IMG/VR virus record: IMGVR_UViG_3300025570_000014 | Location: 1 to 62,510 of that record | Length of the DNA stretch: 62,510 nucleotides | Reading direction: 5' to 3' (one strand) | Source: a virus | Taxonomy: Duplodnaviria > Caudoviricetes | Part shown: positions 574 to 57,445 of the stretch, in pieces | How positions within the stretch are numbered: the first letter of the stretch is position 1 | Layout of the letters: each line of letters starts with the position of its first letter | Program-made: the position numbers and the translations under genes | Notes under the pieces: generated by a model | Seen by the model: the letters and a program-made list of their open reading frames with translations, nothing else | Database searches by the model: none | Told to the model about the DNA's origin: nothing

Positions 574-608
574 GTGTAACTAAAATTTTAAAAATGTAAC
601 TTATTGCG

Positions 609-640
609 TAAATATACGAACGCTAACTCAAAATACCAAA
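609..640 (-). promoter_or_regulatory. Bacteroidota-type (host sigma) promoter TTTG-N20-TATATTTA upstream of the SSB
   Basis: Minus strand: TTTG (640-637), 20-nt spacer ending GTTCG, TATATTTA (616-609). Resembles the Bacteroidetes -33 TTTG / -7 TAnnTTTG consensus; same geometry at three other sites. Confidence 0.7.
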
Positions 641-1027
641 TTATAGTTCAATAATTTGATGAATTTTTGTCTTTAATTGATTCAACTCGTTGTGCTGGGT
701 GAGTAAAATTGTATTGCGATAATGTTGCCAATTGACTTTATATCGTACATCTACTACTCCTCCATTTAACAGTTTTATTAGCTCATTTAGAGCATTTATT
801 GTGTAAAGAGTATTGGACTCTTTTTTTCTATGTACTAAAATAGTGTTGGGTAAAATTGCTTCTATACTAGAAGGTTCTACATTATAAGTACAGACATACT
901 CGTCATTACTTTTTATATGGAGCACAAAAATTTTCTTATAAAGAATGTCGTAGCTAGATTTCACCTCCACTAGCGTTTTCTCCAACTCCTCTAATGTAGT
1001 AAAGGTGCAAAATAGCTTGTTATTCAT
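641..1027 (-). CDS. Hypothetical phage protein (128 aa)
   Basis: Clean ORF; TATTTAT motif just upstream of the ATG; no function recognised. Confidence 0.75.
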   Translation of the reverse strand: MNNKLFCTFTTLEELEKTLVEVKSSYDILYKKIFVLHIKSNDEYVCTYNVEPSSIEAILPNTILVHRKKESNTLYTINALNELIKLLNGGVVDVRYKVNWQHYRNTILLTQHNELNQLKTKIHQIIEL

Positions 1028-1038
1028 GTATATAAATA

Positions 1039-2286: not shown

Positions 2287-2287
2287 A

Positions 2288-4591
2288 TCACAAGATACGA
2301 TCGATTCCTTCAATTACCAAGTCAGGAGTAATAGTCTCTATTTTATACCAATCTTCCATTAAATTTATTTTTTGGAAGGGATACCAATTCCAATTTGAAA
2401 CATCCATTCTATGGGTGCTAAAATATCCTGAAGGGGAGGTGTCATTGTATATTCGGGTGGTGTTTGATTTGAACTCACAATGATTTGGGTGGGTAAATGA
2501 AGAGATTAAAACTGTAGGGATGTTTAGAGCCCATGCTATCCAGGAAAGACCAGAACTAATACTAACATGGAATTCTGCCCCACTAATTATAGACATTACT
2601 TCATCTAGGGGTTTGTTGTGGAAGTGGTAATCACATTGAGGGGAACTATTCATAAAATTTTTAATTCCAAAATTTTTATGTTGGTCTACTGCTATTACTT
2701 TATATCCTTTGTTTTGTAGATGCTTTACAATTTGTTCCCAACCCCCAGGATAATTCCAATATTTGCATTGTGATGTAGATTGGATAGCAATAGTTACGTA
2801 TTTTTCTTTTATGGGGGAAATATTGGGAGATTTAAATCTAGGTATAATTTCTTTATATTCTAGTCCTAAAATATCAGATGATGTTTTTTGAAGAGGTTGG
2901 GTTTTAATATTATGGGGGTGATAAGAAGTATTAATTTTATCATTTTCATAATACCACCCTATTCCATAAGAAGTATGTAAATCTCCTACAGGGGTGCCAG
3001 GGGATACAAATTCTATTTGGGGATATTTTGACTGGAACCAATCGTTATGGAATGTAGAGCAAGTGACTTTGCAGTTATGTTTTTTTCTAAATTCTTCTAC
3101 ATAAGGGAACCATGCAATGGTGTCACCTATAGATTTACTATCTAAGTGTATGTAAACTTTTTTATCAGCTAGATCGAAAATATGCTCATGAATTTTAGTA
3201 TCGTTTTCCCAAATTTCTACTCTCCATTTTATAAAAGATTTATAATTGGGGGAAGTCCACATATTATTGGTAATAATACCCTCATGGATTAACTTATTAT
3301 TAATATCATTATAAAATTTAATTTGGTAATCTTGATTTAGGGGGCCTAGAATTTCACACTTTGCTCCATCTGTAAAGTCAAGGAGAATTTCGTTTTTAAG
3401 CTTTTTAGTTTTAAAATCTTTTAAGGTATCTATGCCTATTTCTGCTACCTTATCCCAATTAAAATCTCGATGGATTAGTTTTGCTTCTTCTAAAGCCCGT
3501 TTTTTATGGTCTGTGTAGTTTTCAAAAGCGTCTCTCATTACACGTGCTAAGTCTTGGAAATCGGGTTCATAGTAATTACCTACTGAAGAATTAAAATGGT
3601 TATAATCAGCATCCATTACGGGTTTTTCTCCTAATATCTTTACAGGAAGACCCTTTCCTTCAGCAAATTCCATTTGACCACTACATGCTGAATAGATTGA
3701 AGGAGTACCACAAGCCATAGCCTCAATTAAGGGTAAATTCCATCCCTCACTTCTAGCACAGGATACAAATACATGACCATTTTTTAAATAAGTAATATAA
3801 TCTTCTCTTGAGGGAAAATGTTTAATTTTTATTCTTTTATCAACAAGCCCATTGTGTTCTAAACGTTTTTCTGTAGTGCCGTGATTATCGCCTGAGAAGG
3901 GGTTATCAACTGATATAATTAAGTCTATAGGTTCGGATGGGTCAAATTCTTTAAGAAAAGTCTCTATAATTTCTTTAGTAGATTTTCTGTAGTCCCATCT
4001 CCCAAATAAAACAAATTTAAATCTTTTATCTTTGTAATCTAGTTTTTTAGAAAAAGGAGAAGGTTTAAAAGTATTAATATCTACCCCTTCAGGTACTACT
4101 TTAACCATATCAGGATCTGCTCCTTGTTTTATAGTACATTCAGCTTGCCATTTTGAGGGAACCCATATTTGATCATACTCCAATAACTTTTTAAAAAAAT
4201 GAGGAGGTTGGAGGGTAGATTCCCAAACATTATAGGCAATTTTGGGTTTGTTATAAGAATTATAAAAGTAGTGATGGTCTGTTTCTACTAAAACTAAATC
4301 AATATCTTGCTCAAACTTATTTTTATAATTGGGGTATATGGGAAATTCATCTCGTGTGTTCTTTCCCGTAGTTAGGGTTTGTTCTACTAATAATTTTTTA
4401 TCTAAATTATCAAGGTATAATTCACCGTTGTGGGGTTCATCATTATTTCCTTTCCAACTTTTTCCTACAGTAAAATTACGAATTTTTAAATCTACTTTTT
4501 CAGATAATTTTCTAAAAAAATCTCTAGAATGGTGATTATATCCGGTGGTTCCTATGTAAGAACAATGAACCTTTAATTTAGGTAATGACAT
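2288..4591 (-). CDS. Two-domain glycosyltransferase: N-terminal GT4-like (GT-B) + C-terminal Aah/TibC-like autotransporter O-heptosyltransferase domain
   Basis: N-half: GRWDYRK and RSEGWNLPLIEAMACG (GT4 E-x7-E motif). C-half: WRVEIWE, SKSIGDTIAWFPYVEEFRKKHNC, STSQCKYWN, SSGLSWIAWAL..PTVLISSFT, HCEF, typical of the Aah/TibC heptosyltransferase family. Confidence 0.8.
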   Translation of the reverse strand: MSLPKLKVHCSYIGTTGYNHHSRDFFRKLSEKVDLKIRNFTVGKSWKGNNDEPHNGELYLDNLDKKLLVEQTLTTGKNTRDEFPIYPNYKNKFEQDIDLVLVETDHHYFYNSYNKPKIAYNVWESTLQPPHFFKKLLEYDQIWVPSKWQAECTIKQGADPDMVKVVPEGVDINTFKPSPFSKKLDYKDKRFKFVLFGRWDYRKSTKEIIETFLKEFDPSEPIDLIISVDNPFSGDNHGTTEKRLEHNGLVDKRIKIKHFPSREDYITYLKNGHVFVSCARSEGWNLPLIEAMACGTPSIYSACSGQMEFAEGKGLPVKILGEKPVMDADYNHFNSSVGNYYEPDFQDLARVMRDAFENYTDHKKRALEEAKLIHRDFNWDKVAEIGIDTLKDFKTKKLKNEILLDFTDGAKCEILGPLNQDYQIKFYNDINNKLIHEGIITNNMWTSPNYKSFIKWRVEIWENDTKIHEHIFDLADKKVYIHLDSKSIGDTIAWFPYVEEFRKKHNCKVTCSTFHNDWFQSKYPQIEFVSPGTPVGDLHTSYGIGWYYENDKINTSYHPHNIKTQPLQKTSSDILGLEYKEIIPRFKSPNISPIKEKYVTIAIQSTSQCKYWNYPGGWEQIVKHLQNKGYKVIAVDQHKNFGIKNFMNSSPQCDYHFHNKPLDEVMSIISGAEFHVSISSGLSWIAWALNIPTVLISSFTHPNHCEFKSNTTRIYNDTSPSGYFSTHRMDVSNWNWYPFQKINLMEDWYKIETITPDLVIEGIDRIL

Positions 4592-4596
4592 AACAA

Positions 4597-4628
4597 TTAA
4601 TATAATTAATCTAATTTAGGAAAACAAA
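4597..4628 (-). promoter_or_regulatory. Bacteroidota-type promoter TTTG-N20-TATATTAA upstream of the glycosyltransferase/polymerase pair
   Basis: Minus strand TTTG (4628-4625), exactly 20 nt, TATATTAA (4604-4597). Confidence 0.55.
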
Positions 4629-4650
4629 TTATTATAGGAGAGTCTTAAAT

Positions 4651-6828
4651 TTATAGTTCTACCCAATCGTTGGATGGGTTAAAGAATACTAGGTTTGTGC
4701 CTACTTTATATCCCATTATTCTAACTACATCACCCGCTGCCGTAGGGGCTGTTGTAGTTAATCTTCCTGTAGCTGTTGATAGATATACTACATCTCCTAC
4801 TGACCCTCCAGGATCAGCAAATACATAGACAATGCCACGTATTACCATACCAGTATTAGAGTTGGTTGAGGTTGATACTCCCATAAATCCTTTAGAAGTT
4901 GATACGGCATCGGCATCTGAGAAAGTCCAAGCAGAACTACCAAGATAATAAACTCCTCCTGCTACAACTGTGTTACTATAAAAAGTAACTGTTTCAGCAT
5001 TAAATCCCTTATCGCCTGCAGATGATGCAGGACCCGCTGAGGATGCTATTTCACCTACTTCTAAAACAGATCCATTACCTGAAATGGTACTTGTAACAGT
5101 AATATCTCCGACAACAGACATAGTTGAGCCATTAAATGTAAAATTAGATTCAGCATTTAGAGTACCATTACCTACTGCTGTTACTACTCTATTATTAGCA
5201 TCATTTGCTATTGTAGGAGAAGTACCTGATGTACCTGAAGTACCTGAGGAACCGTCAGCACCGCTAGTTCTAGTTTTTACGTTACCACTACTATCTACTG
5301 TAAGGAATGTAGTTTCACTACCCACAGGAATAGAAGTAAATTGAGCATTTGATGCTGTTATAAATCCTCCAGCTTTAATATTATCGGATACTTCTAATTT
5401 TTCACTAGGTGAAGTAGTACCTATACCAAAATTACCTGTAGTATTGATATAACTATCCTTTGAGGCATAAGTTCTAAATACTATTTTTTCTGTATCATTA
5501 TCAAAGATACGAAGTTCCCCAGCATTTGTATCAGGAGGTGCTTGTGTATCATTTCCAATTTTAATAATATTTTCATCCGCTTCATTTTTTATAAAAATTC
5601 GAGGATTTTGAAAACCCCCCATTTCTATACTAGAACTAACAGCTATTCCAATATTTTGGCTATCGTTAGCAAAAAGTCCGTGCCCTATTTCAATAGCTTT
5701 TAAATCCCTTTCAGGGAGGTTAGGTCCATCTACTTCCAATACTAAAGACCCATATTGAAATGATGATTGTTCTCCTAATACTCTAGAATATATAGCTCCG
5801 GTACTTCCGGATACTAATAATTTACTTCCACTAAGTGCAGTATCTTCTATAACAAATGCTAATCTACTAGATTCAGCTCCTTCAGTAACGGAGCCACTAG
5901 GTACTGATAATATAAAATCAGGGGCCTCTTTACTAGAACCTTGTCCTGTTTTAAGTTCAAAAGTAGAAGCAGGTTTATCAGTTCCTATGCCTATTCTCGC
6001 ATCATCCCCTGATTTGGAAATAAAAAGGACTTCTTTAAGAACTTCATTAGTTTCTCCTACTAAAAATTTTATAGCTCTACTAGCTGTATCATAATTTATT
6101 TGGGCTGAGGCGCTTACAGGTTGTAGGGATCCTGAGATTGAAGCACTAGCGTCTGTATTAAAAAAATATATGTTGGGGACAGGGGTAAGTAATACTCCAC
6201 TTCGAGGGTCGGGGGAGGATGAAGTAACACTACTTAAAGTAATTTGACCCCCTCCTATTACAAGATTAGGACCATGGTCATTCCCTCCTCCTCCGGTAGG
6301 TTCATGAGTATCGTCACCATCAGATCCTGAGGGGTAAATTGTAATGTCTTTATTGTAAATTATATAATTATTAGGGTATTCACTTTGAGGTAGAACTCCT
6401 AATAAGAATATAGGTTTTTCTGTTTCTTGGGGGGTTACAAACGTGTATGCTAAGGATCCTTGTTCTCTAAATCCTGAGGTAGCATTAATTCCAGTTAAAC
6501 CGTTGTAATCTAAGGGTTGGTTTGATAAAAAGAGAGAGGTGTTAGTAGTAATAAACCCATTATCCGTTACTCCTTGGAGAGTATATTCGACATCTGCTAC
6601 TCCACTACCGGCATCACTGACGTCACCATTTACAAAATTAAGTGTAGTTGTAGGGTTAACAGTAGCTGTAATAGGGGTAGTTTTGGTAATTAAAGTTCCT
6701 CCTCCTCCAATAGAACTTGTTAAGGCAAAACTACCACTTGAAGCGTCCCATATAACCGCTCTATCTACAGAGGGAAATTCGGTAGGATCTAGTTCTACTT
6801 TTACATTATAATTAGTTTTTGTAGCCAT
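4651..6828 (-). CDS. Putative tail fibre / virion appendage protein (725 aa)
   Basis: Gly/Ser/Thr-rich; fibre motifs RIGIGTDKP and GNFGIGTTSPSEKLEV; short GSSGTSGTSGTS tract; C-terminal G.VGDVVYLST..G.LTTTAP domain. Confidence 0.7.
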   Translation of the reverse strand: MATKTNYNVKVELDPTEFPSVDRAVIWDASSGSFALTSSIGGGGTLITKTTPITATVNPTTTLNFVNGDVSDAGSGVADVEYTLQGVTDNGFITTNTSLFLSNQPLDYNGLTGINATSGFREQGSLAYTFVTPQETEKPIFLLGVLPQSEYPNNYIIYNKDITIYPSGSDGDDTHEPTGGGGNDHGPNLVIGGGQITLSSVTSSSPDPRSGVLLTPVPNIYFFNTDASASISGSLQPVSASAQINYDTASRAIKFLVGETNEVLKEVLFISKSGDDARIGIGTDKPASTFELKTGQGSSKEAPDFILSVPSGSVTEGAESSRLAFVIEDTALSGSKLLVSGSTGAIYSRVLGEQSSFQYGSLVLEVDGPNLPERDLKAIEIGHGLFANDSQNIGIAVSSSIEMGGFQNPRIFIKNEADENIIKIGNDTQAPPDTNAGELRIFDNDTEKIVFRTYASKDSYINTTGNFGIGTTSPSEKLEVSDNIKAGGFITASNAQFTSIPVGSETTFLTVDSSGNVKTRTSGADGSSGTSGTSGTSPTIANDANNRVVTAVGNGTLNAESNFTFNGSTMSVVGDITVTSTISGNGSVLEVGEIASSAGPASSAGDKGFNAETVTFYSNTVVAGGVYYLGSSAWTFSDADAVSTSKGFMGVSTSTNSNTGMVIRGIVYVFADPGGSVGDVVYLSTATGRLTTTAPTAAGDVVRIMGYKVGTNLVFFNPSNDWVEL

Positions 6829-6848
6829 TGATTATAAATATAAATAGT

Positions 6849-7112
6849 TTAAGTAGCAGCAATTTTAATACAATATTCAGCTGTTAGGTATTTAACAGGT
6901 TCATAACTAGCAAGCAAGCTAGCAGTTAAAGCGGCATTTAAAGTAGTAGTTAAAGAAGCATCTAGAGAAGCAGTTAAAGAAGCATTAAGTTCTTCAACAT
7001 TCCACAATGTAGAATCTATTGTAAGGGTAGGAAAGTTAGATCCTAAAAGGGGACCTCCAACTATACCTGTTAAAATGGATCCTGTTAAACTTGCATCTAG
7101 ATTACAACTCAT
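6849..7112 (-). CDS. Small hypothetical protein with L(D/N)ASLT repeats
   Basis: Start overlaps upstream stop; LNASLTASLDASLTTTLNAALTASLLAS periodicity. Confidence 0.6.
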   Translation of the reverse strand: MSCNLDASLTGSILTGIVGGPLLGSNFPTLTIDSTLWNVEELNASLTASLDASLTTTLNAALTASLLASYEPVKYLTAEYCIKIAAT

Positions 7113-7522
7113 TATATTGGTCTGTACCCATCAGAAGTAAATATTGATTTCTTAGGTATGAAGGTCCCTACGGCTGCTACTAAACTTGTATCTTCATCAC
7201 CCGTAGGACTAACTACTAATTCGGTATAATATGTTACGTTTTCTGTTAGGACTCCACCACTATTTACAAAATCCGCTTGGGTAAAAAATACTTGGATTTG
7301 AGTTCCTCCGTTGGGGATAACAACTTGGAAGGGTGAAGAAGGCATACCTGGTACCCATACACTTGTGCATTTCTCTAATACTGATACTCCTCCTTCAGTT
7401 AAAGAACACCCCCACCATGCATCCCAGTTAGTATCAAAGTTGGAAGTTAAATCTGTGAAAGTATATAGTAAAAGAAAAGTATCGTCTTCAAATTTTATAA
7501 AGTCTTGATTAAAAGATGCCAT
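7112..7522 (-). CDS. Hypothetical structural protein, paralogue of 7562..8284
   Basis: Shared FNQ..I.FED..F, WWGCS.T.GGVS.LEK, FTQ.D...SGG.L, YY.EL and SIF...GYRP. Confidence 0.7.
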   Translation of the reverse strand: MASFNQDFIKFEDDTFLLLYTFTDLTSNFDTNWDAWWGCSLTEGGVSVLEKCTSVWVPGMPSSPFQVVIPNGGTQIQVFFTQADFVNSGGVLTENVTYYTELVVSPTGDEDTSLVAAVGTFIPKKSIFTSDGYRPI

Positions 7523-7561
7523 TTTTTATTTTTTATATTATATTAATAAATATTGTAATGA

Positions 7562-8284
7562 TTAGGGTCTATATCCTTCAGCACTAAAAATTGAGGGTCT
7601 TACTTGTAAAGTACCTTGAGCTATTACTTGGGTAGGTACATTGTAGATAGCACTATAATTTAAGGTTTCACCTGCAATCAATTCCCAATAATAAGTTTCG
7701 CCTGTTTCTAAGGGGCCTCCACTAGCTTCGTAATCATCTTGGGTAAATTCTACAGTAACAAGAGCAGGACCCGTTCCATTATCTGTAGCAGTAAGGTATA
7801 TGTTTCCTGTAGAGGGAGGTATTTCCGTTGGGAGATTATTGGATGTTAAAGTTATAATAGCATCTGTAGTACTTCCAAGAGCAGATGATGGTAGGGTTAA
7901 AGTGTCTCCATCTTCATATCCTACTCCTCCATCATTTATAAAAGCATAAGTGATCACACCCGCAGTTTGTTGAGTAGTAATTTTAGCCCCACCACCATCT
8001 TCTCCGGGTAGAGTGGGTATGGTGTATTGAAAAAGATTGATGGTTGCATCTGTTGTATTAGTAGTAATAGAACTTAATATGTTTCCTGTAAAGATCCCTC
8101 CATCCCAGTTACTATTTGCCTTTTCTAAAATAGAAACACCTCCAAAAGTGGTAGAACATCCCCACCAAACATTATCATCTGCTGCTAAGTTATATTGAAT
8201 ATTATATTGAATAGGAATTACAGGAAATTCTACATTAAAAAATTCATCTTCAAATGTTATGATTTGTTGATTAAATGTATTCAT
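7562..8284 (-). CDS. Hypothetical structural protein, paralogue of 7112..7522 with an inserted DGG.GY beta module
   Basis: Same blocks as its neighbour plus about 100 extra residues. Confidence 0.7.
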   Translation of the reverse strand: MNTFNQQIITFEDEFFNVEFPVIPIQYNIQYNLAADDNVWWGCSTTFGGVSILEKANSNWDGGIFTGNILSSITTNTTDATINLFQYTIPTLPGEDGGGAKITTQQTAGVITYAFINDGGVGYEDGDTLTLPSSALGSTTDAIITLTSNNLPTEIPPSTGNIYLTATDNGTGPALVTVEFTQDDYEASGGPLETGETYYWELIAGETLNYSAIYNVPTQVIAQGTLQVRPSIFSAEGYRP

Positions 8285-8294
8285 TTTTTAATTA

Positions 8295-11200
8295 TTACAA
8301 ATCGTTAAAAATTCTAAATGTTAATGAATGCTTGTAGAATAAGCTATAATCAAGAGTATTGTATACTTTAAATCTTAGAATGTTGTTTGTAACATCAACA
8401 TCCTCTGCTTGAATGTATATTTGTTCCAAGTTTAGTCTGGATTTAGTGTATTCAGGAACTAAGTATGGGATCGTAAGGTTTAACACTACATCATCGGTGG
8501 ATGTTGTTCCTCCTATATCGGCCCCATCAATTGTGATTGCTGTAGTTGTTGAATATCCACTTCCCCCATCTGTTACTATTATTGAAGTAGCAAGTCCTGT
8601 ATTTCCTATTACAACTGTGGCTTGTGCTCCTGTTCCTCCTCCTGTAATACCAACAGGACCATAGGACCCTTGGGTCTTATTTCCGGGGTCTGTGGCTACT
8701 ATACTTATTAATTGGGTTTGAGCAATTTCAGTAGTTACACTTTGTGAAACGAATGTTCCATCTACTTCAGTAATAGTAAAATCATATAGATAGTTTTTAC
8801 TTAAAAATGCCCAAAGGGTACCTGTAAATTTCAATGTAGCACCTGCTCTGATGAAGGGGTCAGCAACGGTTCCTGTTCCGCTATTATTTCCTTTTAATAT
8901 AACCATTCCATCAAATTCAACTACATCGAATGTGCCAAAGCTAAGCCCCGTATTAAAAATATCAGTTCCTGGGTTACCCACGGATCCTGCAGGTACACTA
9001 TCTAATATAGACCAATTTTCTGTGATTGATGTACCTGAAGTACCTGATGAGCCTGATGTGCCTGATGAACCACTAGTACCTGAAGAACCTGATGTGCCTG
9101 AAGAACCAGATGTACCCGAAGCTCCCGTCATACCTGAAGAGCCTGAAGTACCTGAAGAACCTGAAGTGCCTGAGGAACCACTAATACCTGAAGTACCTGA
9201 AGAGCCTGAGGTACCTGATGAGCCACTAGTACCTGAAGAACCTGAAGTACCTGATGAACCTGATGTGCCTGAAGCACCTGTCATACCTGAGGAGCCAGAA
9301 GTGCCTGAAGAGCCTGAGGTGCCTGAGGAACCACTTGTACCTGATGAACCACTTATACCCGAAGTACCTGATGAACCACTTGTACCCGAAGAACCATCTA
9401 TACCTGAAGTGCCTGATGAACCTGAAGTACCCGATGAACCATCTATACCTGAGGTACCCGATGAACCACTTGTACCTGAAGAACCGTCTATACCTGAAGT
9501 ACCTGATGAACCACTTGTGCCTGAAGAACCATCTATACCTGATGTACCTGATGAACCTGAAGTACCTGAAGAACCGTCTATACCTGAAGTACCTGATGAA
9601 CCACTTGTACCTGAAGAACCGTCTATGCCTGAAGTACCTGAAGAACCTGAAGTACCCGATGAACCGTCTGTGCCTGATGAACCTGATGAACCTGAAGTAC
9701 CGTCTATACCTGAAGTACCTGATGAACCACTTGTACCTGAAGAACCATCTATACCTGAAGTGCCTGAAGAACCTGAAGTACCTGAAGAACCATCTATACC
9801 TGATGTACCTGATGAACCACTTGTACCTGAAGAACCATCTATACCTGAAGTACCTGATGAACCACTTGTACCTGATGAACCATCTATACCTGAGGTACCT
9901 GATGAGCCACTTGTACCTGATGAACCGTCTATACCTGATGTACCTGATGAACCTGAGGTACCCGATGAACCGTCTATACCTGATGTACCTGATGAACCTG
10001 AAGTACCTGAAGAACCACTTGTTCCTGAGGTGCCGCTAGAACCTGAAGAGCCACTAGTACCCGAAGAGCCTGAAGTACCTGAGGCGCCTGTCATACCTGA
10101 TGAACCGGATGTGCCTGAAGAGCCGTCTATACCTGCAATCCCTGAAGTACCCGATGAACCACTGGTGCCTGATAAACCACTTGTTCCTGAAGAACCTGAA
10201 GTGCCTGATGAGCCTGATGTACCTGAGGAACCACTAGTACCTGAAGAACCTGAAGTACCTGAAGCCCCTGTCATACCTGAAGAACCCGAAGTACCTGAAG
10301 AGCCTGAAGAGCCTGAAGTACCTGAAGAACCTGAGGTGCCCGATGAACCATCTATACCTGAAGTACCTGAAGTGCCTGAAGAACCTGATGTACCTGAAGA
10401 ACCTGATGCTCCTGGGGCTCCTGCTAGGTTTATACACCATGTATAAGAGGTAATTGAAGACCAAGACCCTGTGGAAGAAGTAACATTAATTTCAATATTT
10501 CCAGTTCCTGAGTTATAATTGTTTACGGTACCCTCAATAAAATTAGAGGAATCAATTGCTAATATTATGTTCTGCCCCGCAGTATAAGCTAATCCGGATC
10601 CTATAGCAATAGTAAGAGGGGATGAAGGAGGGTTTGAAATTGTAAGGTTATTAACACATGCAGCATAGATATCTCCATCGGTTCCTGAAGCACCTGATGA
10701 GCCTGAGGTACCTGATGAGCCTGATGTGCCTGAAGAACCACTAGTACCTGAAGAGCCATCTATACCTGAAGTGCCTGAGGAGCCTGAGGTACCCGATGAG
10801 CCGGATGTGCCTGAAGCACCTGTCATACCTGATGAACCTGAAGTGCCTGAAGAACCTGAAGTGCCTGATGAACCCGAAGTGCCTGAAGTGCCTGAAGTAC
10901 CTGATGAACCGTCTATACCTGAAGTGCCTGAAGAACCTGAAGTACCTGAGGCACCTGTCATACCTGAAGAACCTGAAGTGCCTGAAGTGCCCGATGTGCC
11001 AGAGGAACCCGATGTGCCTGATGAACCTGAAGTACCTGATGAACCTGAAGTACCTGAAATACCCGATGAACCTGAGGAACCACTAGTACCTGAAGAACCA
11101 CTAGTGCCTGAAGAACCTGAAGTACCCGAAGCTCCGGTCATACCTGAAGAGCCTGAGGTGCCTGATGAACCTGAAGTGCCTGAAGAACCATCAATACCTG

Positions 11201-14200
11201 AGGTGCCAGAAGAACCACCGGTACCTGAAGAACCTGAAGTACCTGAAGAACCACTAGTACCCGAAGAACCGCTAGTACCTGATGAACCATTAATACCTGA
11301 AGTACCCGAAGAACCACTGGTGCCTGAAGAACCTGATGTACCTGATGAACCTGAAGTACCTGAAGCACCTGCCATACCCGAGGAACCTGAGGTACCTGAA
11401 GAGCCACTTCCACCTGTAGCTCCTGAGGTACCTGAAGAGCCACTAGTGCCTGAAGAACCACTAGTACCTGAAGAACCTGATGAACCTGCAGTACCTGATG
11501 TACCTGAAGAACCTGATGTTCCTGAGGCTCCTGTCATACCTGATGAACCCGAAGTGCCTGAAGAACCACTAGTACCTGAAGAGCCTGAGGTGCCTGATGA
11601 GCCACTTTCACCTGTTGCTCCTGATGAACCTGATGTACCCGATGAACCTGAAGTACCTGAAGAGCCGTCTATACCTGAAGTACCTGATGAACCACTTGTA
11701 CCTGAAGAACCATCTATACCTGAAGTACCTGAAGAACCACTAGTACCTGAGGAACCTGAAGTACCTGAGGAACCTGAAGTACCTGAAGCTCCTGTCATAC
11801 CTGAAGAGCCTGAGGTACCTGAGGAACCTGATAAACCTGATGTACCTGATGTACCTGAAGAACCACTGGTGCCTGAAGAACCACTAGTACCTGATGAACC
11901 CGAAGTGCCTGAAGAACCTGATGTACCTGAAGAACCTGATGTTCCTGAGGCTCCTGTCATACCTGAAGAACCTGATGTGCCTGAAGAACCACTTATGCCT
12001 GAAGTACCTGATGAACCTGCAGCACCTGAAGTACCCGAAGAACCATCTATACCTGATGTTCCTGAAGAGCCTGAGGTACCTGAGGAACCTGATACACCTG
12101 ATGTACCTGATGTACCTGAAGAACCACTAGTACCTGAGGAGCCACTGGTGCCTGAAGAACCTGATGTACCTGAAGAACCTGATGTGCCTGAAGCTCCAGT
12201 CATACCTGAAGAACCTGATGTACCTGATGAACCCGATATACCTGATGTACCTGATGTACCTGAAGAACCAGATATACCTGAAGAGCCTGATGTACCTGAA
12301 GAACCTGAGGTACCTGATGAACCATTTATACCTGAAGTACCGGATGAACCACTAGTACCTGAAGAGCCTGATGTACCTGAAGAACCTGAGGTGCCCGATG
12401 AACCATCTATACCTGAAGTGCCTGATGAGCCTGATGTACCAGAGGTTCCTGATGAACCCGATGCCCCTGGGGCTCCTGCTAAGTTTAAACACCATTCTAT
12501 AGTACCTGAGAATGTTCCCGTGTAAGTTAAATTAATTAATACTATTACCCCTGAATTGGGAGTATAACTATCTACTGTTCCTTCAATAAATTGGGTAGCA
12601 CTATGTGCTAATATTACATTCTGTCCTGCGGTATAAGCTAAATCAGTAGCAAAAGTTAAAGTAAGTGATGGTGGAGGGGTACCACTAGTAATAGTTTGAT
12701 TTGCACAATCCGCGTATACATCACCATCCGCTCCAGCAGCTCCTGAAGAACCTGAAGTGCCTGAAGTGCCTGAAGAACCATCTATACCTGAAGTGCCTGA
12801 TGAGCCTGATGTGCCTGATGAACCACTAGTACCTGAAGAACCTGATGTACCTGAAGCTCCAGTCATACCTGAAGAACCTGATGTACCTGATGAACCCGAT
12901 ATACCTGAAGTACCTGATGAACCTGCAGTACCTGATGTACCTGAAGAACCTGAAGTGCCTGAGGCTCCTGTCATACCTGATGAACCCGAAGTGCCTGAAG
13001 AACCACTAATACCTGAAGAACCCGAAGTACCTGATGTACCTGATGAACCTGATGTACCCGATGAACCTGAGGTGCCTGAAGAGCCGTCTATACCTGAAGT
13101 ACCTGATGAACCACTTGTACCTGAAGAACCATCTATACCTGAAGTACCTGAAGAACCACTAGTACCTGAGGAACCTGAAGTGCCTGAAGAACCTGATGTG
13201 CCTGAGGCACCTGTCATACCTGAGGAACCTGAGGTACCTGAAGAGCCACTTTCACCTGTAGCTCCTGATGTGCCTGAAGAACCACTAATGCCTGAAGAGC
13301 CACTGGTGCCTGAAGAACCTGAAGTACCTGAAGAACCTGAAGTACCTGAAGCACCTGTTATACCCGAGGAACCTGAAGTTCCTGAAGAGCCACTTTCACC
13401 TGTAGCTCCTGAGGTGCCTGATGAACCTGACGTACCTGATGAACCTGATGTGCCTGATGAGCCATCCTCACCTGTAGCCCCTGAAGTACCTGACGAACCT
13501 GATGTACCTGAAGAACCACTAGTGCCTGAAGAACCATCTATACCTGAAGTGCCTGAGGAGCCTGAAGTACCCGATGAGCCTGATGTGCCTGAAGAACCAC
13601 TATCCCCTGTAGCTCCTGATGTACCCGAGGAACCACTAGTACCCGAAGAACCAGAAGTACCTGAGGCTCCAGTCATACCTGATGAACCACTAGTACCTGA
13701 TGAACCGCTAACACCTGAAGAGCCTGAAGTGCCTGAAGTGCCTGAAGAACCTGAAGTACCTGATGAACCGCTAAAACCTGAGGAGCCACTAGTACCTGAA
13801 GTACCTGATGAACCACTAGTACCTGATGAACCACTAGTACCTGATGAGCCTGAAGTACCCGATGAACCTGATGTACCAGAGGTACCTGATGAACCACTAA
13901 TACCTGATGAGCCTGAAGTACCCGATGAACCTGATGTACCTGAAGAACCACTAGTACCTGAAGAACCTGATGTACCCGAAGTACCTGAGGAGCCTGAAAT
14001 ACCCGATGAGCCTGATGTACCTGAAGTTCCCGATGAGCCCGAAATACCTGAGGAGCCTGATGTACCCGAAGCACCTGTCATACCTGATGAACCGGAGGTG
14101 CCTGAAGAGCCACTAATACCTGATGAACCACTGGTGCCTGCAGAACCACTAGTACCTGATGAACCTGAAGTACCCGATGTACCCGATGAACCTGATGTAC

Positions 14201-17200
14201 CAGAGGTACCTGATGAACCACTAATGCCTGATGAGCCTGAAGTACCTGATGAACCTGAGGAACCACTAGTACCTGAGGAACCTGATGAGCCTGAAATGCC
14301 TGAACTACCTGAAGTTCCTGAAGAACCTGAAACACCTGAGGTGCCTGAAGAACCTGAGCTGCCTGAAGTACCTGATGAACCTGATGTGCCTGAGGCCCCT
14401 GTCATACCTGATGAACCACTAGTACCTGAAGAGCCTGATGTACCCGAAGTACCTGAGGAGCCACTAATACCTATGGCGCCTGAGGTGCCTGAGGTGCCTG
14501 ATGAACCTGATGAACCTGAGGTGCCTGAGGAACCACTAATACCTGATGTGCCTGAAGAACCTGAAGTACCTGAGGCACCTGTCATACCTGAAGAACCTGA
14601 TGTGCCTGAAGAACCACTTATGCCTGAAGTACCTGATGAACCTGCAGCACCTGAAGTGCCTGATGAACCTGAGATACCTGATGTTCCTGAAGAACCTGAG
14701 ATACCCGATGTACCCGAAGAACCTGATGCTCCGGGGGCTCCCGCTAGGTTTATACACCATTGTTGAGAACCACTAAAAGTCCCTGTAGAAGAGGTAACTA
14801 TAATACTAATGCCCCCTGTTCCCGAATTATAGGACCCAACCGTTCCTTCAATTAGGTTATTAACATTACCTGGGGTAGCCAATATTATACTTTGTCCCGT
14901 TGTATAAGCTAATCCAATTCCTATAACAAGATTAAGGGTACCCGAAGCGGGGGAAGTGAGGGATTGGGTACTACAATTGGCGTATATGTCACCATCCTCA
15001 CCTGATGAACCCGAAGTACCCGAAGAACCACTAGTACCTGAAGAACCTGATGTACCTGAAGAACCTGATGTTCCTGAGGCACCTGTCATACCTGAAGAAC
15101 CTGATGTGCCTGAGGAACCTGAAGTACCTGATGAGCCAGCTGTACCTGAGGTACCAGATGAGCCTGATGTGCCTGAAGAGCCACTAGTACCTGAAGAACC
15201 ACTAGTGCCGGAAGAACCACTAGTACCTGAAGAGCCACTAGTACCTGAAGAGCCACTAGTACCTGAGGAACCCGAGATACCACTAGTGCCTGAGGAACCA
15301 CTAGTACCTGATGTACCTGAGGAACCACTAATACCCGATGTACCTGAAGAACCTGAAGTGCCAGATGAACCCGAAGTGCCTGAAGTTCCTGAAGAGCCAT
15401 TTATCCCAGAGGTGCCGGAAGAACCTGAGGTACCCGAAGATCCTGAAGTGCCAGATGAACCATCGATACCCGAAGTACCTGATGAACCTGATGTGCCCGA
15501 AGCCCCCGTCATTCCTGAGGAACCTGAGGTGCCTGATGATCCTGAAGAGCCGGCGGTGCCTGAGGTACCTGAAGAACCACTAGTACCTGAAGAACCTGAG
15601 GTACCTGAAGAACCATCTATACCTGAGGTACCTGATGATCCTGAAGAGCCGGAGGTGCCTGAGGTTCCTGAAGAACCACTAGTACCTGAAGAACCTGAGG
15701 CACCTGAAGAGCCTGATGTACCAGAGGTACCTGATGAACCACTAATGCCTGATGAGCCTGAAGTACCTGATGAACCTGATGTACCTGAAGAACCACTAGT
15801 GCCTGAAGAACCACTAGTACCTGCAGAACCGCTAGTACCTGAAGAGCCTGAAGTACCTGAAGTACCCGAAGAACCGTCTATACCTGAGGTACCCGACGAT
15901 CCTGATGAACCTGAGGTGCCTGAAGAACCTGATGTGCCTGAAGAACCACTAGTACCTGCCGAACCGCTAGTACCTGAAGAGCCTGAAGTACCTGATGCAC
16001 CCGTCATACCCGAAGAACCTGAAGTACCTGATGAACCTGCAGTACCTGAAGAGCCATCTATGCCTGAAGTGCCCGATGAACCTGAAGTGCCTGATGAACC
16101 ACTAATACCTGATGAACCACTAGTACCTGAAGTGCCTGATGAACCACTAGTACCTGATGTGCCTGATGAGCCACTAGTACCTGAAGAGCCACTGATGCCT
16201 GATGATCCCGATGTGCCTGAGCTACCTGAGGTGCCTGAGGAGCCTGAAAAACCTGAAGTGCCTGATGAGCCGGATGTACCTGATGTACCTGATGAGCCTG
16301 AAGAACCACTAGTACCTGAAGAACCTGAGGTACCTGAAGAGCCATCTATACCTGAAGTACCCGAAGAACCACTAGTACCTGAGGAACCATCTATACCTGA
16401 GGTGCCTGAGGAACCTGAGGAACCTGAGGTACCTGACGAACCTGATGAGCCTGATGAACCCGAGGTACCTGAGGCACCTGTCATACCTGAAGAACCTGAA
16501 GTACCTGATGAGCCTGATTCTCCAGATGTACCTGAAGTACCTGATGAACCTGATATTCCAGATGAACCTGAAGTACCTGATGAACCTGATGTGCCTGAAG
16601 AACCTGAAGAACCTGAAGTGCCTGAGGAACCGTCTATGCCTGAGGTACCTGAAGAACCTGAAGAACCTGAAGTACCAGATGAACCTGAAGTACCCGATGA
16701 ACCCGATATACCTGAAGTGCCCGATGAGCCTGAGGTGCCAGATGAGCCTGAGGAGCCAGATGTGCCCGAACTACCTGAAGTACCTGAAGAACCGGATGTA
16801 CCTGAAGCACCTGTCATACCTGATGAACCGCTAGTACCCGATGAACCCGATGATCCTGAAGTGCCTGAAGTGCCTGATGATCCTGCTGCTCCTGGAGCTC
16901 CCTCTAGGTTTATACACCATTGTAGAGAAGTAGGGGTAGGCCAATTCCCTGTTTGGGAAGTAATATCGATTTCTATATCCCCATTTGATGAGTTATATGA
17001 ATTAACTATTCCTACTATATACTGTGTGGCACTATATGCTAGTATTACAGTTTGACCTACTGTATATGCTAGTCCTGCGGCTATGTTTATATTAAGGGGG
17101 TCTCCAGGGGGATCGGTAATGGTTTGAGTGCTACAATCGGCATATATGTCACCATCTTCACCAGATGAACCCGAAGTGCCTGAAGTACCTGAAGTACCTG

Positions 17201-17645
17201 AGGAGCCTTCGGCACCCGATGATCCTGATGTACCTGATGAGCCGCTTCCTCCTCCTCCTGTTCCGTCATTATAATCTAATACAATACAAACTTCTTCCTC
17301 AGCATTTAATGGAAAATTACCAGATTGAGCACTAGCTCCTGCAGTTATTGTAAAAGATATATAATTAGTATTATCCGTTACAGCTGTGTAAGGAAAAACT
17401 GCGTAGTTAGCAGGATATTTTTTACTGTGTATTGTTAAATTACCTTTAGTACTATCTTTTAGGTAATCCGATATGTTAATATTATTAAGGTCCGATATGT
17501 TAATATCAACACGAGTTGTATTTCTAACATCTAAACTACTATAAAGACTTAATCTACCAGGGGAGGGGATTGTAGAGGGAGTTGAAACCTTGTAAGGTAT
17601 ACAAAATGCTCCTAAATCTCTATCTATAATAAATTTTTGTGCCAT
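8295..17645 (-). CDS. Giant Gly-X-Y (GSS/GTS) repeat fibre protein, 3116 aa, with four repeated ~90-aa spacer domains
   Basis: One open frame of 9.35 kb with globular N- and C-termini, Gly at every third residue in the repeat tracts, a late motif at 17665-17671, and a position downstream of the baseplate genes. Confidence 0.85.
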   Translation of the reverse strand: MAQKFIIDRDLGAFCIPYKVSTPSTIPSPGRLSLYSSLDVRNTTRVDINISDLNNINISDYLKDSTKGNLTIHSKKYPANYAVFPYTAVTDNTNYISFTITAGASAQSGNFPLNAEEEVCIVLDYNDGTGGGGSGSSGTSGSSGAEGSSGTSGTSGTSGSSGEDGDIYADCSTQTITDPPGDPLNINIAAGLAYTVGQTVILAYSATQYIVGIVNSYNSSNGDIEIDITSQTGNWPTPTSLQWCINLEGAPGAAGSSGTSGTSGSSGSSGTSGSSGMTGASGTSGSSGTSGSSGTSGSSGSSGTSGSSGTSGISGSSGTSGSSGTSGSSGSSGTSGIDGSSGTSGSSGSSGTSGSSGTSGSSGISGSSGTSGTSGESGSSGTSGSSGMTGASGTSGSSGSSGSSGTSGSSGSSGTSGIDGSSGTSGSSGTSGIDGSSGTSGSSGTSGSSGSSGTSGTSGSSGTSGFSGSSGTSGSSGTSGSSGISGSSGTSGSSGTSGTSGSSGTSGTSGSSGISGSSGTSGSSGTSGIDGSSGTAGSSGTSGSSGMTGASGTSGSSGTSGSAGTSGSSGTSGSSGTSGSSGSSGTSGIDGSSGTSGTSGSSGTSGSAGTSGSSGTSGSSGTSGSSGTSGSSGISGSSGTSGTSGSSGASGSSGTSGSSGTSGTSGSSGSSGTSGIDGSSGTSGSSGTSGSSGTSGTAGSSGSSGTSGSSGMTGASGTSGSSGTSGIDGSSGTSGSSGTSGSSGTSGINGSSGTSGTSGSSGTSGSSGTSGISGSSGTSGTSGSSGTSGISGSSGTSGSSGTSGSSGTSGSSGTSGSSGTSGSSGTSGSSGTSGTAGSSGTSGSSGTSGSSGMTGASGTSGSSGTSGSSGTSGSSGTSGSSGEDGDIYANCSTQSLTSPASGTLNLVIGIGLAYTTGQSIILATPGNVNNLIEGTVGSYNSGTGGISIIVTSSTGTFSGSQQWCINLAGAPGASGSSGTSGISGSSGTSGISGSSGTSGAAGSSGTSGISGSSGTSGSSGMTGASGTSGSSGTSGISGSSGTSGSSGSSGTSGTSGAIGISGSSGTSGTSGSSGTSGSSGMTGASGTSGSSGTSGSSGSSGTSGVSGSSGTSGSSGISGSSGSSGTSGSSGSSGTSGSSGISGSSGTSGTSGSSGTSGTSGSSGTSGSAGTSGSSGISGSSGTSGSSGMTGASGTSGSSGISGSSGTSGTSGSSGISGSSGTSGTSGSSGTSGSSGTSGSSGTSGSSGISGSSGTSGTSGSSGTSGSSGTSGSSGTSGSSGTSGTSGSSGFSGSSGTSGSSGTSGTSGSSGVSGSSGTSGSSGMTGASGTSGSSGTSGSSGTSGATGDSGSSGTSGSSGTSGSSGTSGIDGSSGTSGSSGTSGSSGTSGATGEDGSSGTSGSSGTSGSSGTSGATGESGSSGTSGSSGITGASGTSGSSGTSGSSGTSGSSGISGSSGTSGATGESGSSGTSGSSGMTGASGTSGSSGTSGSSGTSGSSGTSGIDGSSGTSGSSGTSGIDGSSGTSGSSGTSGSSGTSGTSGSSGISGSSGTSGSSGMTGASGTSGSSGTSGTAGSSGTSGISGSSGTSGSSGMTGASGTSGSSGTSGSSGTSGSSGTSGIDGSSGTSGTSGSSGAAGADGDVYADCANQTITSGTPPPSLTLTFATDLAYTAGQNVILAHSATQFIEGTVDSYTPNSGVIVLINLTYTGTFSGTIEWCLNLAGAPGASGSSGTSGTSGSSGTSGIDGSSGTSGSSGTSGSSGTSGSSGTSGINGSSGTSGSSGTSGSSGISGSSGTSGTSGISGSSGTSGSSGMTGASGTSGSSGTSGSSGTSGSSGTSGSSGTSGTSGVSGSSGTSGSSGTSGIDGSSGTSGAAGSSGTSGISGSSGTSGSSGMTGASGTSGSSGTSGSSGTSGSSGTSGSSGTSGSSGTSGTSGLSGSSGTSGSSGMTGASGTSGSSGTSGSSGTSGSSGTSGIDGSSGTSGSSGTSGIDGSSGTSGSSGTSGSSGATGESGSSGTSGSSGTSGSSGTSGSSGMTGASGTSGSSGTSGTAGSSGSSGTSGSSGTSGSSGTSGATGGSGSSGTSGSSGMAGASGTSGSSGTSGSSGTSGSSGTSGINGSSGTSGSSGTSGSSGTSGSSGTGGSSGTSGIDGSSGTSGSSGTSGSSGMTGASGTSGSSGTSGSSGTSGSSGSSGISGTSGSSGTSGSSGTSGSSGTSGTSGTSGSSGMTGASGTSGSSGTSGIDGSSGTSGTSGTSGSSGTSGSSGTSGSSGMTGASGTSGSSGTSGSSGTSGIDGSSGTSGSSGTSGSSGTSGSSGASGTDGDIYAACVNNLTISNPPSSPLTIAIGSGLAYTAGQNIILAIDSSNFIEGTVNNYNSGTGNIEINVTSSTGSWSSITSYTWCINLAGAPGASGSSGTSGSSGTSGTSGIDGSSGTSGSSGTSGSSGSSGTSGSSGMTGASGTSGSSGTSGSSGTSGSSGTSGSSGTSGLSGTSGSSGTSGIAGIDGSSGTSGSSGMTGASGTSGSSGTSGSSGSSGTSGTSGSSGTSGSSGTSGIDGSSGTSGSSGTSGIDGSSGTSGSSGTSGIDGSSGTSGSSGTSGIDGSSGTSGSSGTSGIDGSSGTSGSSGTSGIDGSSGTSGSSGTSGIDGTSGSSGSSGTDGSSGTSGSSGTSGIDGSSGTSGSSGTSGIDGSSGTSGSSGTSGIDGSSGTSGSSGTSGIDGSSGTSGSSGTSGIDGSSGTSGSSGTSGIDGSSGTSGSSGTSGISGSSGTSGSSGTSGSSGTSGSSGMTGASGTSGSSGTSGSSGTSGSSGTSGSSGTSGISGSSGTSGSSGTSGSSGMTGASGTSGSSGTSGSSGTSGSSGTSGSSGTSGTSITENWSILDSVPAGSVGNPGTDIFNTGLSFGTFDVVEFDGMVILKGNNSGTGTVADPFIRAGATLKFTGTLWAFLSKNYLYDFTITEVDGTFVSQSVTTEIAQTQLISIVATDPGNKTQGSYGPVGITGGGTGAQATVVIGNTGLATSIIVTDGGSGYSTTTAITIDGADIGGTTSTDDVVLNLTIPYLVPEYTKSRLNLEQIYIQAEDVDVTNNILRFKVYNTLDYSLFYKHSLTFRIFNDL
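9027..16886 (-). repeat. Degenerate 9-bp-unit coding repeat (Gly-Ser-Ser / Gly-Thr-Ser) in four tracts
   Basis: Tracts at about 9027-10406, 10680-12461, 12729-14726 and 14997-16886; plus-strand units such as cctgaagta, cctgatgaa and ccactagta. Confidence 0.95.
10407..17156 (-). repeat. Four copies of a ~90-aa domain (DGD(I/V)YA.C...LAYT.GQ..ILA...G.V..Y...WC(I/L)NL.GAPGA)
   Basis: Copies at 16887-17156, 14727-14996, 12462-12728 and 10407-10679. Confidence 0.9.
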
Positions 17646-17672
17646 AGATTAGTGGTTCTTCGTTATAAATAT

Positions 17673-25108: not shown

Positions 25109-25145
25109 GTTAAGGATTTATTATAAATATTTAAAAATAAAACCT

Positions 25146-26142: not shown

Positions 26143-26182
26143 TATGGATAACTATTTGTTTGATATAAATATATAATAAAAT

Positions 26183-26717: not shown

Positions 26718-26757
26718 TGTCGTGTTTTGTTATAAATATTACAAATTCAATTTCTTA

Positions 26758-31407: not shown

Positions 31408-31467
31408 GTTGTTTTGTTATAAATATAGCAGGATTTTAAAGGAGGTTAGGTTTTAATTATTTATAAA

Positions 31468-47187: not shown

Positions 47188-47219
47188 CGATGGGCTTTTT
47201 TATAAATATATAAAGATTT

Positions 47220-51394: not shown

Positions 51395-51405
51395 GATTAT
51401 AAATA

Positions 51406-57425: not shown

Positions 57426-57445
57426 TTTATTTTTGTTTATAAATA

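Follow-up and report, generated by a model that had tools for sequence, protein, structure and literature searches.

In the IMG/VR virus record IMGVR_UViG_3300025570_000014, analysed here in its entirety (62,510 bases, completeness estimate 42%; hereafter the window), a gene for a two-domain glycosyltransferase of 767 amino acids (aa), P0001, lies close to the gene for a giant collagen-like fibre, P0002, and the locus raises the question of what the enzyme modifies. We propose, with a probability of roughly 0.6 and on the strength of sequence comparisons, that P0001 O-glycosylates serines and threonines in the Gly-Ser/Thr repeats of this fibre. The giant fibre would then probably be heavily sugar-coated, because the enzyme adjoins the fibre and the enzyme's bacterial relatives sit beside similar repeat proteins. 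The two genes and their parts are as follows:

2288..4591, minus strand: P0001, bifunctional glycosyltransferase, 767 aa (open reading frame (ORF) and translation)
3413..4591, minus strand: N-terminal GT4 domain of P0001 (GT-B, retaining-type), residues 1-393 (PF00534, PF20706, phrog_2170)
2291..3412, minus strand: C-terminal BAHT-like (Aah/TibC-like, GT9) domain of P0001, residues 394-767, with an N-terminal beta-barrel and without an iron finger (TIGR04414, TibC match)
8295..17645, minus strand: P0002, collagen-like giant fibre, 3116 aa (PF01391; best PHROG matches are tail-fibre families)
17253..17645, minus strand: N-terminal domain of P0002, 131 aa, conserved in relatives
9027..17252, minus strand: collagen-like region of P0002, Gly-X-Y runs plus four globular modules of 80-82 aa each
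8298..9026, minus strand: C-terminal non-collagen domain of P0002, 243 aa

The two-domain transferase P0001

A first-pass annotation of this DNA had described the 767-aa protein as a GT4 domain joined to an Aah/TibC domain, and both halves bear this out. The N-terminal half matches PF00534 at 44.9 bits (cut-off 26.4, E 1.2e-11, residues 182-310), PF20706 at 31.9 bits (cut-off 26) and the glycosyltransferase family phrog_2170 at E 1.3e-27. Its acidic pair E282 and E290, which we take to be the EX7E motif, is retained in 41 of the 43 family members that we aligned and to which all conservation counts below refer. The C-terminal half reaches 257.7 bits with TIGR04414 (hepto_Aah_TibC), above the curated equivalog cut-off of 200 (E 1.6e-76), in a match that spans residues 394-741 and profile positions 4-350 of 374. 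For comparison, a classical E. coli plasmid enzyme scores 614.7 and bacterial enzymes of the clade that also holds the phage copies (clade B, below) score 299-312.

TibC is the closest solved sequence to P0001 (4rap, E 1.8e-47, residues 393-738 on TibC 15-359) and also the top solved fold found by Foldseek for an AlphaFold model of the protein, with a TM score of 0.85 normalised to TibC and a root-mean-square deviation of 2.7 Å. In this model, built on 43 sequences (mean pLDDT 86.2), strands at 401-471 form an N-terminal beta-barrel of the BAHT type and are followed by a two-lobed GT-B catalytic domain. For the GT4 half the best solved folds are the PBCV NY2A (chlorovirus) glycosyltransferase 3oy2 and then MshA, with PimB' found as well. 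The GT9 profile PF01075 matches residues 594-705 at 29 bits, and the lipopolysaccharide (LPS) heptosyltransferase profiles stay below their cut-offs on P0001 (TIGR02193, 26.1 against 185.3; TIGR02195, 13.1 against 134.6). By hidden Markov model, by sequence and by predicted fold alike, the C-terminal domain belongs to the Aah/TibC family, as the first-pass annotation had anticipated from its motifs.

According to the passages of the TibC paper from which we take residue roles (PMC4358343), the sole characterised BAHT members are protein Ser O-heptosyltransferases whose acceptors are beta-helical adhesin passengers. In TibC four cysteines, 339, 342, 358 and 370, bind Fe in an iron finger that is needed for the dodecamer, for activity and for TibA recognition (PMC4358343). 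Aligned to TibC, the phage domain reads:

TibC Asp-110, catalytic base: P0001 D490, conserved in 43 of 43
TibC Thr-226, beta-phosphate contact: P0001 T606, 43 of 43
TibC Lys-230, beta-phosphate contact: P0001 K610, 41 of 43
TibC Trp-305, contact to heptose O4: P0001 W684, 43 of 43
TibC Arg-286, contact to adenine N1 and basis for ADP-sugar specificity: P0001 V665; the column holds V 27, I 6, A 6 and R 2 among 43
TibC Cys-339, Cys-342 and Cys-358, iron finger: P0001 P720, Y723 and Y737; Cys at each column in just 2 of 43
TibC Pro-300 (Aah Ser-294), heptose stereoselectivity position: P0001 S679; the column holds S 22 and G 21

The position of the fourth finger cysteine, Cys-370, falls outside the aligned stretch of P0001. 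Because the catalytic Asp and the donor contacts Thr, Lys and Trp are all conserved, the BAHT-like domain is, as far as its residues tell, a catalytically intact BAHT relative. By the same alignment it is without the iron finger, on which TibC relies to assemble its ring and to grip a beta-helical substrate. Since the iron finger and the adenine-reading Arg are both missing, neither the substrate handling of TibC nor its donor can be transferred to P0001. Where the TibC thumb aligns, the model shows two short strands (640-649), and the tip residues F265/V266 of TibC are replaced by N645/F646. Arg is present at the adenine-contact motif in the finger-bearing copies of multi-domain proteins of the family (by eye, uncounted).

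Collagen-like repeats beside the enzyme in phages and bacteria

P0002 matches PF01391 (Collagen) at 999.8 bits. Its unbroken Gly-X-Y runs (residues 132-167, 249-887, 969-1643, 1724-2326 and 2409-2873) are 36, 639, 675, 603 and 465 residues long, the longest therefore 675, and together comprise 2418 residues with 1388 Ser and Thr; the first-pass annotation had put these figures at about 2350 and more than a thousand. The runs consist of 42.8% Ser, 33.5% Gly, 14.6% Thr and 0.2% Pro, and Lys and Arg are absent. X is Ser or Thr in 80% of the triplets, and Y is Ser in 88%. The rise of a collagen helix is 0.286 nm per residue, and the repeats could span about 690 nm (roughly 0.7 micrometre) if they are triple-helical. 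The C-terminal 243 aa, which to judge from their position could be a trimerisation or receptor-binding domain, found no relative in viral contigs and a best score of 0.83 in the ESM Atlas, where none reached 0.9. The N-terminal domain recurs at 56-61% identity in seven viral contigs, each of which ends no more than about 2 kb further on, inside repeats. An open frame of the P0002 kind, 2891 aa long, is present on two other contigs, so the size of the giant fibre is no one-off assembly artefact.

At the DNA level the repeats are degenerate (periods of 9, 18 and 45 bp, about 63% matches) and are old. G+C climbs to 0.49-0.50 across 10-16 kb because of codon content. Long antisense ORFs of 531, 599, 669 and 699 aa lie on the plus strand between 8851 and 17055; they are a by-product of the collagen-repeat DNA.

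The pairing of this enzyme family with such repeats was found in bacteria independently of the phage fibre. The BAHT-like domain has more than 1082 relatives among length-matched candidates, and we built a tree of 147 domains. They come from phage loci and metagenome proteins, from 80 cellular loci and from two plasmid loci where an autotransporter partner is annotated. One branch with a support of 100, recovered by FastTree on 147 domains and by IQ-TREE on 63 rows, divides clade A from clade B. Clade A (48 loci) contains the E. coli and Pantoea enzymes together with those of Caballeronia, Paraburkholderia, Pandoraea and Selenomonadales. Clade B (45 loci) contains every phage copy, Methylococcales, Polaromonas, other Burkholderiales, Binatia and a few metagenome-assembled genomes, and all finger-less copies form a single 26-row sub-clade within it (support 100). 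Counting as a repeat ORF any with at least five (G[STA][STAG]) triplets, we find one within 2.5 kb of the enzyme gene at 22 of 45 clade-B loci and at 0 of 48 in clade A; within 6 kb the counts are 26 of 45 and 0 of 48 (Fisher 3e-11, uncorrected for phylogeny). The pairing recurs, by eye, on at least six separate branches of the tree. The neighbours of clade-A enzymes carry AIDA or autotransporter domains at three of the six loci scanned, and at both annotated plasmid loci.

In one bacterial sub-clade of 23 rows, which holds the closest cellular relatives of the domain (Methylobacter, Methylomicrobium, other Methylococcales, Polaromonas, Burkholderiaceae and Binatia), a repeat ORF directly adjoins the enzyme gene in 19, 13 at the strict threshold and six more at a lower one; of the four rows without it, two are 2-4 kb contigs that end at the enzyme gene. 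The nine bacterial repeat ORFs that we translated start with a signal peptide or lipobox and continue into (GTS/GTA/GTT)n tracts, and all three that were scanned match PF01391. At locus L135, from Methylobacter luteus IMV-B-3098, the adjoining GTS-repeat protein is 287 aa long. The remaining neighbours are housekeeping genes (Mfd, ThyA, Lgt, pyrophosphatase, TctC). Because the repeat ORF is adjacent while these other neighbours differ between loci, the gene order identifies the enzyme and the secreted repeat protein as an autonomous two-gene cassette, parallel to aah-aidA.

These observations bear on how the family is named. TIGR04414 gives its 299-312 bits to Methylococcales and Burkholderiales enzymes that adjoin collagen-like repeat proteins (L135, L148, L151, L160, L150 and similar loci), and the automatic names from JGI call the phage proteins autotransporter heptosyltransferases; the NCBIfam equivalog name is thus given to phage, Methylococcales and Burkholderiales proteins that have no autotransporter partner. 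For these proteins the name 'autotransporter strand-loop-strand O-heptosyltransferase' is probably wrong on substrate and an over-annotation, because the neighbours of those enzymes are collagen-like repeat proteins and no autotransporter. Among the 120 relatives listed, the fusion partners of the BAHT-like domain are GT4, GT2, GT34-like and methyltransferase domains, and some proteins contain it two or three times; across the family these fusions resemble what a glycan-building enzyme would look like. In the 'assembly-line' metagenome proteins P0004, P0005, P0037, P0076, P0106 and P0107, two or three BAHT-like domains, some finger-less and some finger-bearing, are combined with methyltransferase, GT34-like or GT4 domains.

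In phages the co-occurrence of the enzyme and a repeat fibre, which the first-pass annotation had proposed to examine, is suggestive at the sequence level and not clean; because assemblies break inside repeats, no clean table can be drawn up. Of the close relatives, four (L004, L005, L006 and L012) reach 2.9 kb or more upstream of the enzyme gene, and every one of them has a GSS/GTS ORF there; in L018 a repeat ORF ends 70 bp before the enzyme gene, which there adjoins the sheath gene. The complete 190-kb genome of Mel-JY01 contains a lone collagen-like ORF, located 1.7 kb upstream of the sole BAHT-like gene, whose product joins GT4, methyltransferase and BAHT domains. In the Mel-JY01 record (L001) the annotated coding sequences 1-651 and 739-2298 oppose a 1016-aa open Gly-X-Y frame (2-3049), and the collagen-like gene is probably mis-annotated and spans the record start. 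In the 735-kb huge phage LR756501, a GT4+BAHT gene and a GTS/GSS fibre-like ORF are 3.6 kb apart in L128, or about 5 kb by record coordinates. Collagen-like giant frames of 3488, 2830, 2816, 2373 and 1665 aa also lie in LR756501.1 at about 104-123 kb and 400-421 kb; its GT4+BAHT gene is at about 580 kb. When the repeat DNA was compared by blastn with 50,697 phage records, only 10 of them matched, the top two being LR756501 and its twin LR756503. Both genes are absent from four complete-genome relatives (Flavobacterium phage immuto, LR756508, RM378 and LR756511). A search anchored on the 424-aa gene that lies directly 3' of P0001 added one enzyme variant (L223, 1017 aa) and one enzyme-less relative (G044). 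The collagen-like repeat types in these phages are diverse: GSS/GTS, Pro-rich, GTQ/GIQ and GAT/GLQ. Co-occurrence among the phages is incomplete, the exceptions being LR756504 and, on its 49%-complete contig, G044.

Mechanism, donor sugar and competing explanations

Several observations weigh against the giant fibre as the substrate of P0001. The alignment to TibC leaves P0001 without iron-finger cysteines and without the adenine-contacting Arg, and 19 of the 45 clade-B loci have no repeat ORF within 6 kb. In the 636-kb genome LR756504, which has a BAHT-like gene, nothing matches PF01391 at E <= 1e-6. The close relative G044 (66.6 kb, 49% complete) has a (GAT/GLQ)n collagen-like ORF and no BAHT gene on its contig, and in it ORFs of 1074 and 1556 aa without Gly-X-Y occupy the position before the 424-aa gene. 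Collagen-like ORFs near the sheath-adjacent enzyme copies are Pro-rich and Ser/Thr-poor, with Ser/Thr fractions of 0.04-0.14 in G023, G035 and G039 and 0.05-0.12 in L015 and L024; G023 additionally has one Ser/Thr-rich ORF (0.96) at the contig end. The 26 sheath-anchored contigs comprise 9 with the enzyme, of which 7 have a PF01391 match, and 17 without, of which 10 do, so collagen-like genes are common in this phage group anyway. This comparison is undiscriminating because the contigs are merely 10-32% complete. Three of the seven contigs that carry the P0002 N-terminal domain are counted in it as 'collagen without enzyme', and these rows are uninformative because the contigs end inside repeats.

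The last of the adverse points concerns the donor sugar. A profile search of 14 records found no gmhA in the window, in the contigs of 10 relatives, in Mel-JY01 or in LR756501; the single gmhA is that of LR756504.1 (430182-430640; TIGR00441, 251.5 bits against a cut-off of 209). In LR756504 it lies 27 kb from a stand-alone, finger-bearing BAHT-like gene, and this genome has no collagen-like gene. The model for rfaE domain II (cytidylyltransferase-like) gave sub-threshold matches alone, in 2 of the 14 records, and the 'cytidylyltransferase like protein' of Mel-JY01 has no NCBIfam match. S679 of P0001 is the same residue as the Ser of Aah at the stereoselectivity position. On this evidence ADP-heptose is doubtful as the donor of P0001, because the window has no heptose-synthesis gene and the adenine-reading Arg-286 is lost; the first-pass annotation had likewise cautioned that the sugar may not be heptose.

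We envision P0001 as a predicted cytoplasmic, bifunctional protein O-glycosyltransferase that would be active in late infection. In nature it would act on hydroxyl groups of Ser and Thr in Pro-free Gly-(Ser/Thr)-Ser collagen-like repeats, mainly in the 3116-aa fibre, whose gene lies 3.7 kb upstream, and probably in a short tract of the 725-aa fibre P0003 as well. The BAHT-like domain (GT9, inverting, base D490) would prime the freshly synthesised chain at Ser/Thr, after which the GT4 domain would add another sugar. The product would be a densely glycosylated fibre, roughly 0.7 micrometre long if triple-helical, on which the sugars would stabilise the helix in place of the absent proline, hydroxyproline and salt bridges and would also form the outer surface. 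We infer the acceptor, the order in which the domains act, the triple helix and its stabilisation from the evidence above. The view of the first-pass annotation that the phage glycosylates its own fibre is thus partly supported: the bacterial neighbours speak independently for a Gly-Ser/Thr acceptor, and the loss of the iron finger and of Arg-286 qualifies it. Its further suggestions, that the glycan mimics a polysaccharide or shields the virion, may also hold. A predicted complex of the BAHT-like domain with a 60-residue repeat fragment scored 0.07 against a mark of 0.32, and a score below the mark gives no answer either way.

A passage of PMC11923368 describes a (Gly-Pro-Thr)10 peptide that folds only with galactosylated Thr. 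By analogy a sugar-stabilised collagen helix in P0002 seems reasonable, because its repeats are without known stabilisers and glycosylated Thr can stabilise a collagen helix. At somewhat short of even odds, we extend this proposal to a widespread enzyme-substrate system that has gone unrecognised: a second Aah/TibC clade whose cognate acceptors would be Pro-free Gly-(Ser/Thr)-(Ser/Thr) repeats, in secreted or lipid-anchored proteins of bacteria and in giant fibres of phages, and whose dense O-glycans would hold 'sugar-stabilised collagen' helices. If so, the fused GT4, GT2 and methyltransferase modules would serve to vary the glycan and thereby host range or resistance to proteases or defences.

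Other products of the window, further candidate acceptors among them, are:

4651..6828, minus strand: P0003, fibre-like protein, 725 aa, with a short GSSGTSGTSGTS tract at residue 527
6849..8284, minus strand: three small ORFs (87, 136 and 240 aa) between the two fibres
36538-38934, minus strand: structural-module protein, 798 aa, with weak YadA-head-like repeats

The tract in P0003 had been picked out by the first-pass annotation and is where we find it. P0003 has no Pfam, NCBIfam or PHROG match and found no relatives as a query in the viral-contig search; a 292-aa stretch of it is 45% identical to an 845-aa ORF in the same position of L006/L012. The 87-, 136- and 240-aa ORFs have no Pfam or PHROG match, and the 136-aa ORF has weak relatives (24-31% identity) that adjoin the giant fibre gene in L006/L012. 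The 798-aa protein, with two YadA_head matches of 19 and 16.8 bits (below the cut-off of 25) and 25% Ser+Thr, is a possible alternative acceptor or second fibre.

It is conceivable, if unlikely, that P0001 modifies other virion proteins and not, or not mainly, the giant fibre. The 725-aa fibre and the 798-aa protein are candidates, as are capsid or tail proteins, for which glycosylated mycobacteriophage virions are a precedent. The P0001 gene lies inside the structural module, several phages have the enzyme gene by the sheath gene with no Ser/Thr-rich collagen ORF nearby, and the Ser/Thr content and weak YadA_head matches of the 798-aa protein would suit an enzyme family whose classical members act on beta-helical adhesin passengers (passages of PMC4358343). 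P0001, however, is missing the iron finger with which TibC grips a beta-helix. AIDA repeats (PF16168) are absent from the window and no autotransporter family was found among the 42 window ORFs scanned, and clade B pairs with Gly-Ser/Thr repeats (26/45 against 0/48) and never with autotransporters.

Slightly less probable again is an auxiliary role in which P0001 would remodel the host envelope (LPS core, O-chain, capsule or a surface protein), for instance to prevent superinfection. The LPS heptosyltransferases belong to GT9, and the 29-bit PF01075 match falls in that superfamily; but the LPS heptosyltransferase models themselves score far under their cut-offs, and P0001 has the BAHT-specific beta-barrel. 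A part of PMC7029224 interprets glycosyltransferases of the pelagimyophage fibre region as O-chain modifiers and reports rfaE there, and the combination in LR756504 of gmhA and a BAHT-like gene without a collagen-like gene would fit such a role. The bacterial relatives of P0001, in contrast, form cassettes with secreted repeat proteins in varied contexts and not in LPS clusters.

That enzyme and fibre have no functional link, the transferase being a mobile passenger of a hypervariable region and the repeats an unmodified flexible or triple-helical spacer, is very improbable: collagen-like genes are frequent without the enzyme (the 10 of 17 contigs above), the enzyme gene occupies at least two genomic positions and fibre genes are hypervariable (P0003 and the P0002 C-terminus are without relatives found), yet separate branches of the tree (bacteria, Mel-JY01 and a huge phage) show the same pairing, control clade A gives 0/48, and the catalytic residues are conserved in both P0001 domains. 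We set DNA glycosylation aside, as both domains are of the protein- or glycan-type GT-B, proteins are the acceptors of the nearest family and P0001 is encoded within the structural module.

Phage context and comparison with known systems

The setting of the two genes is that of a tail-fibre module. All long ORFs of the window are on the minus strand, and a profile scan of 42 ORFs identified a Gp23 major capsid protein, Gp20 portal, prohead protease, large terminase, PhoH and gp32; a 571-aa ORF is the tail sheath (phrog_23, E 2.8e-75). By this gene content the phage is a T4-like myovirus. Its nearest cultured relatives by capsid protein identity are Flavobacterium phage immuto (56%), Microcystis phage Mel-JY01 (47.5%) and Rhodothermus phage RM378 (36%). 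Because immuto is the closest, the Bacteroidota host suggested by the first-pass annotation is plausible, although unproven. That annotation had also placed the ORFs for the 767-, 725- and 3116-aa proteins correctly, with the transferase just downstream of the fibres. In the order of transcription, baseplate-region ORFs are followed by the 3116-aa gene, the three small ORFs, the 725-aa gene, the 767-aa gene and then replication genes, so that P0001 is the final gene of the late, structural tail-fibre module. The replication genes 3' of it begin with the 424-aa ORF, followed by a gp32-like single-stranded DNA-binding protein:

1039-2313, minus strand: 424-aa ORF with a TTG start and a 26-base overlap with the end of the transferase gene

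The 424-aa ORF weakly matches the C-terminal part of a DNA-polymerase PHROG (E 8e-08) and is kept at 74-87% identity directly 3' of the transferase in relatives.

Among the 42 scanned ORFs are auxiliary genes that are unusual in a phage: a phosphatidylserine decarboxylase (PF02666, E 1.9e-24), a DUF285 protein (E 3.2e-111) and a pyridine nucleotide-disulphide oxidoreductase, plus PhoH. The element TATAAATA on the plus strand, which reads TATTTATA in the sense of the genes, stands roughly 4-22 nt 5' of many minus-strand start codons (1031-1038, 6833-6846, 17664-17671, 25122-25129, 26164-26171, 26731-26738, 31418-31425, 47201-47208, 51398-51405 and 57438-57445). It occurs 23 times in the window against 12.2 expected, a count reached in 1 of 100 shuffles. 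We considered a T4-type late promoter, TATAAATA; the gene-sense strand instead bears TATTTATA near many starts, which in this phage group may serve as a late promoter or in translation initiation.

In the open-access library searched, no paper ties the BAHT enzyme family to collagen-like proteins or to phages. If P0001 does glycosylate the giant fibre, the autotransporter heptosyltransferase family would be connected to collagen-like proteins for the first time, and the phage would be one that glycosylates its own tail fibre. It would also offer an alternative to the usual view, expressed in part of PMC7029224, that fibre-region glycosyltransferases of marine T4-like phages modify host LPS. 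How bacterial and viral collagen helices fold without proline, hydroxyproline or charge pairs is a question raised in a section of PMC11923368, which leaves unsettled whether Thr is glycosylated before folding. The pairing of P0001 and P0002 makes the folding of proline-free collagen-like helices directly testable.

Set beside known systems, P0001 shares the GT9 superfamily and the GT-B fold with the LPS core heptosyltransferases WaaC, WaaF and WaaQ. Unlike them it scores far below the family cut-offs, and the Waa acceptor is a lipid-linked sugar and no protein. A further parallel is offered by viruses that encode transferases for their own structural proteins. Chloroviruses and Mimivirus glycosylate their own structural proteins and collagen, respectively, with virus-encoded transferases, and Freeman and colleagues reportedly described in 2023 the glycosylation of mycobacteriophage virion proteins by phage-encoded glycosyltransferases. 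With chloroviruses the likeness extends to the fold, as the best solved structure for the GT4 half is the NY2A enzyme 3oy2. The enzyme families and the acceptors of the mycobacteriophage, chlorovirus and Mimivirus systems nevertheless differ from those proposed here.

Like the Bacillus exosporium protein BclA, with its (GPT)n repeats and O-linked oligosaccharides, and the Riftia cuticle collagen with its galactosylated Thr, P0002 is a Gly-X-Y protein with hydroxy-amino acids at the helix-stabilising positions and no hydroxyproline. The BclA and Riftia repeats contain Pro and have Thr at Y, whereas X and Y in P0002 are almost only Ser/Thr, with 0.2% Pro. The BclA transferases belong to families other than BAHT.

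The nearest parallel is with Aah/AIDA-I and TibC/TibA of E. coli (TIGR04414; 4RAP/4RB4). P0001 falls in the same hidden Markov model family, has the N-terminal beta-barrel and GT-B fold, and retains the catalytic Asp with the Thr, Lys and Trp donor contacts; like these enzymes it would be a cytoplasmic, hyper-glycosylating enzyme, and its gene lies near that of a very repetitive, Ser-rich candidate substrate. It differs in belonging to a separate clade (support 100) without iron-finger cysteines or Arg-286, in having no gmhA found with it, and in being phage-encoded and fused to a GT4 domain. Its neighbour, finally, is a collagen-like Gly-X-Y protein in place of an autotransporter beta-helix.

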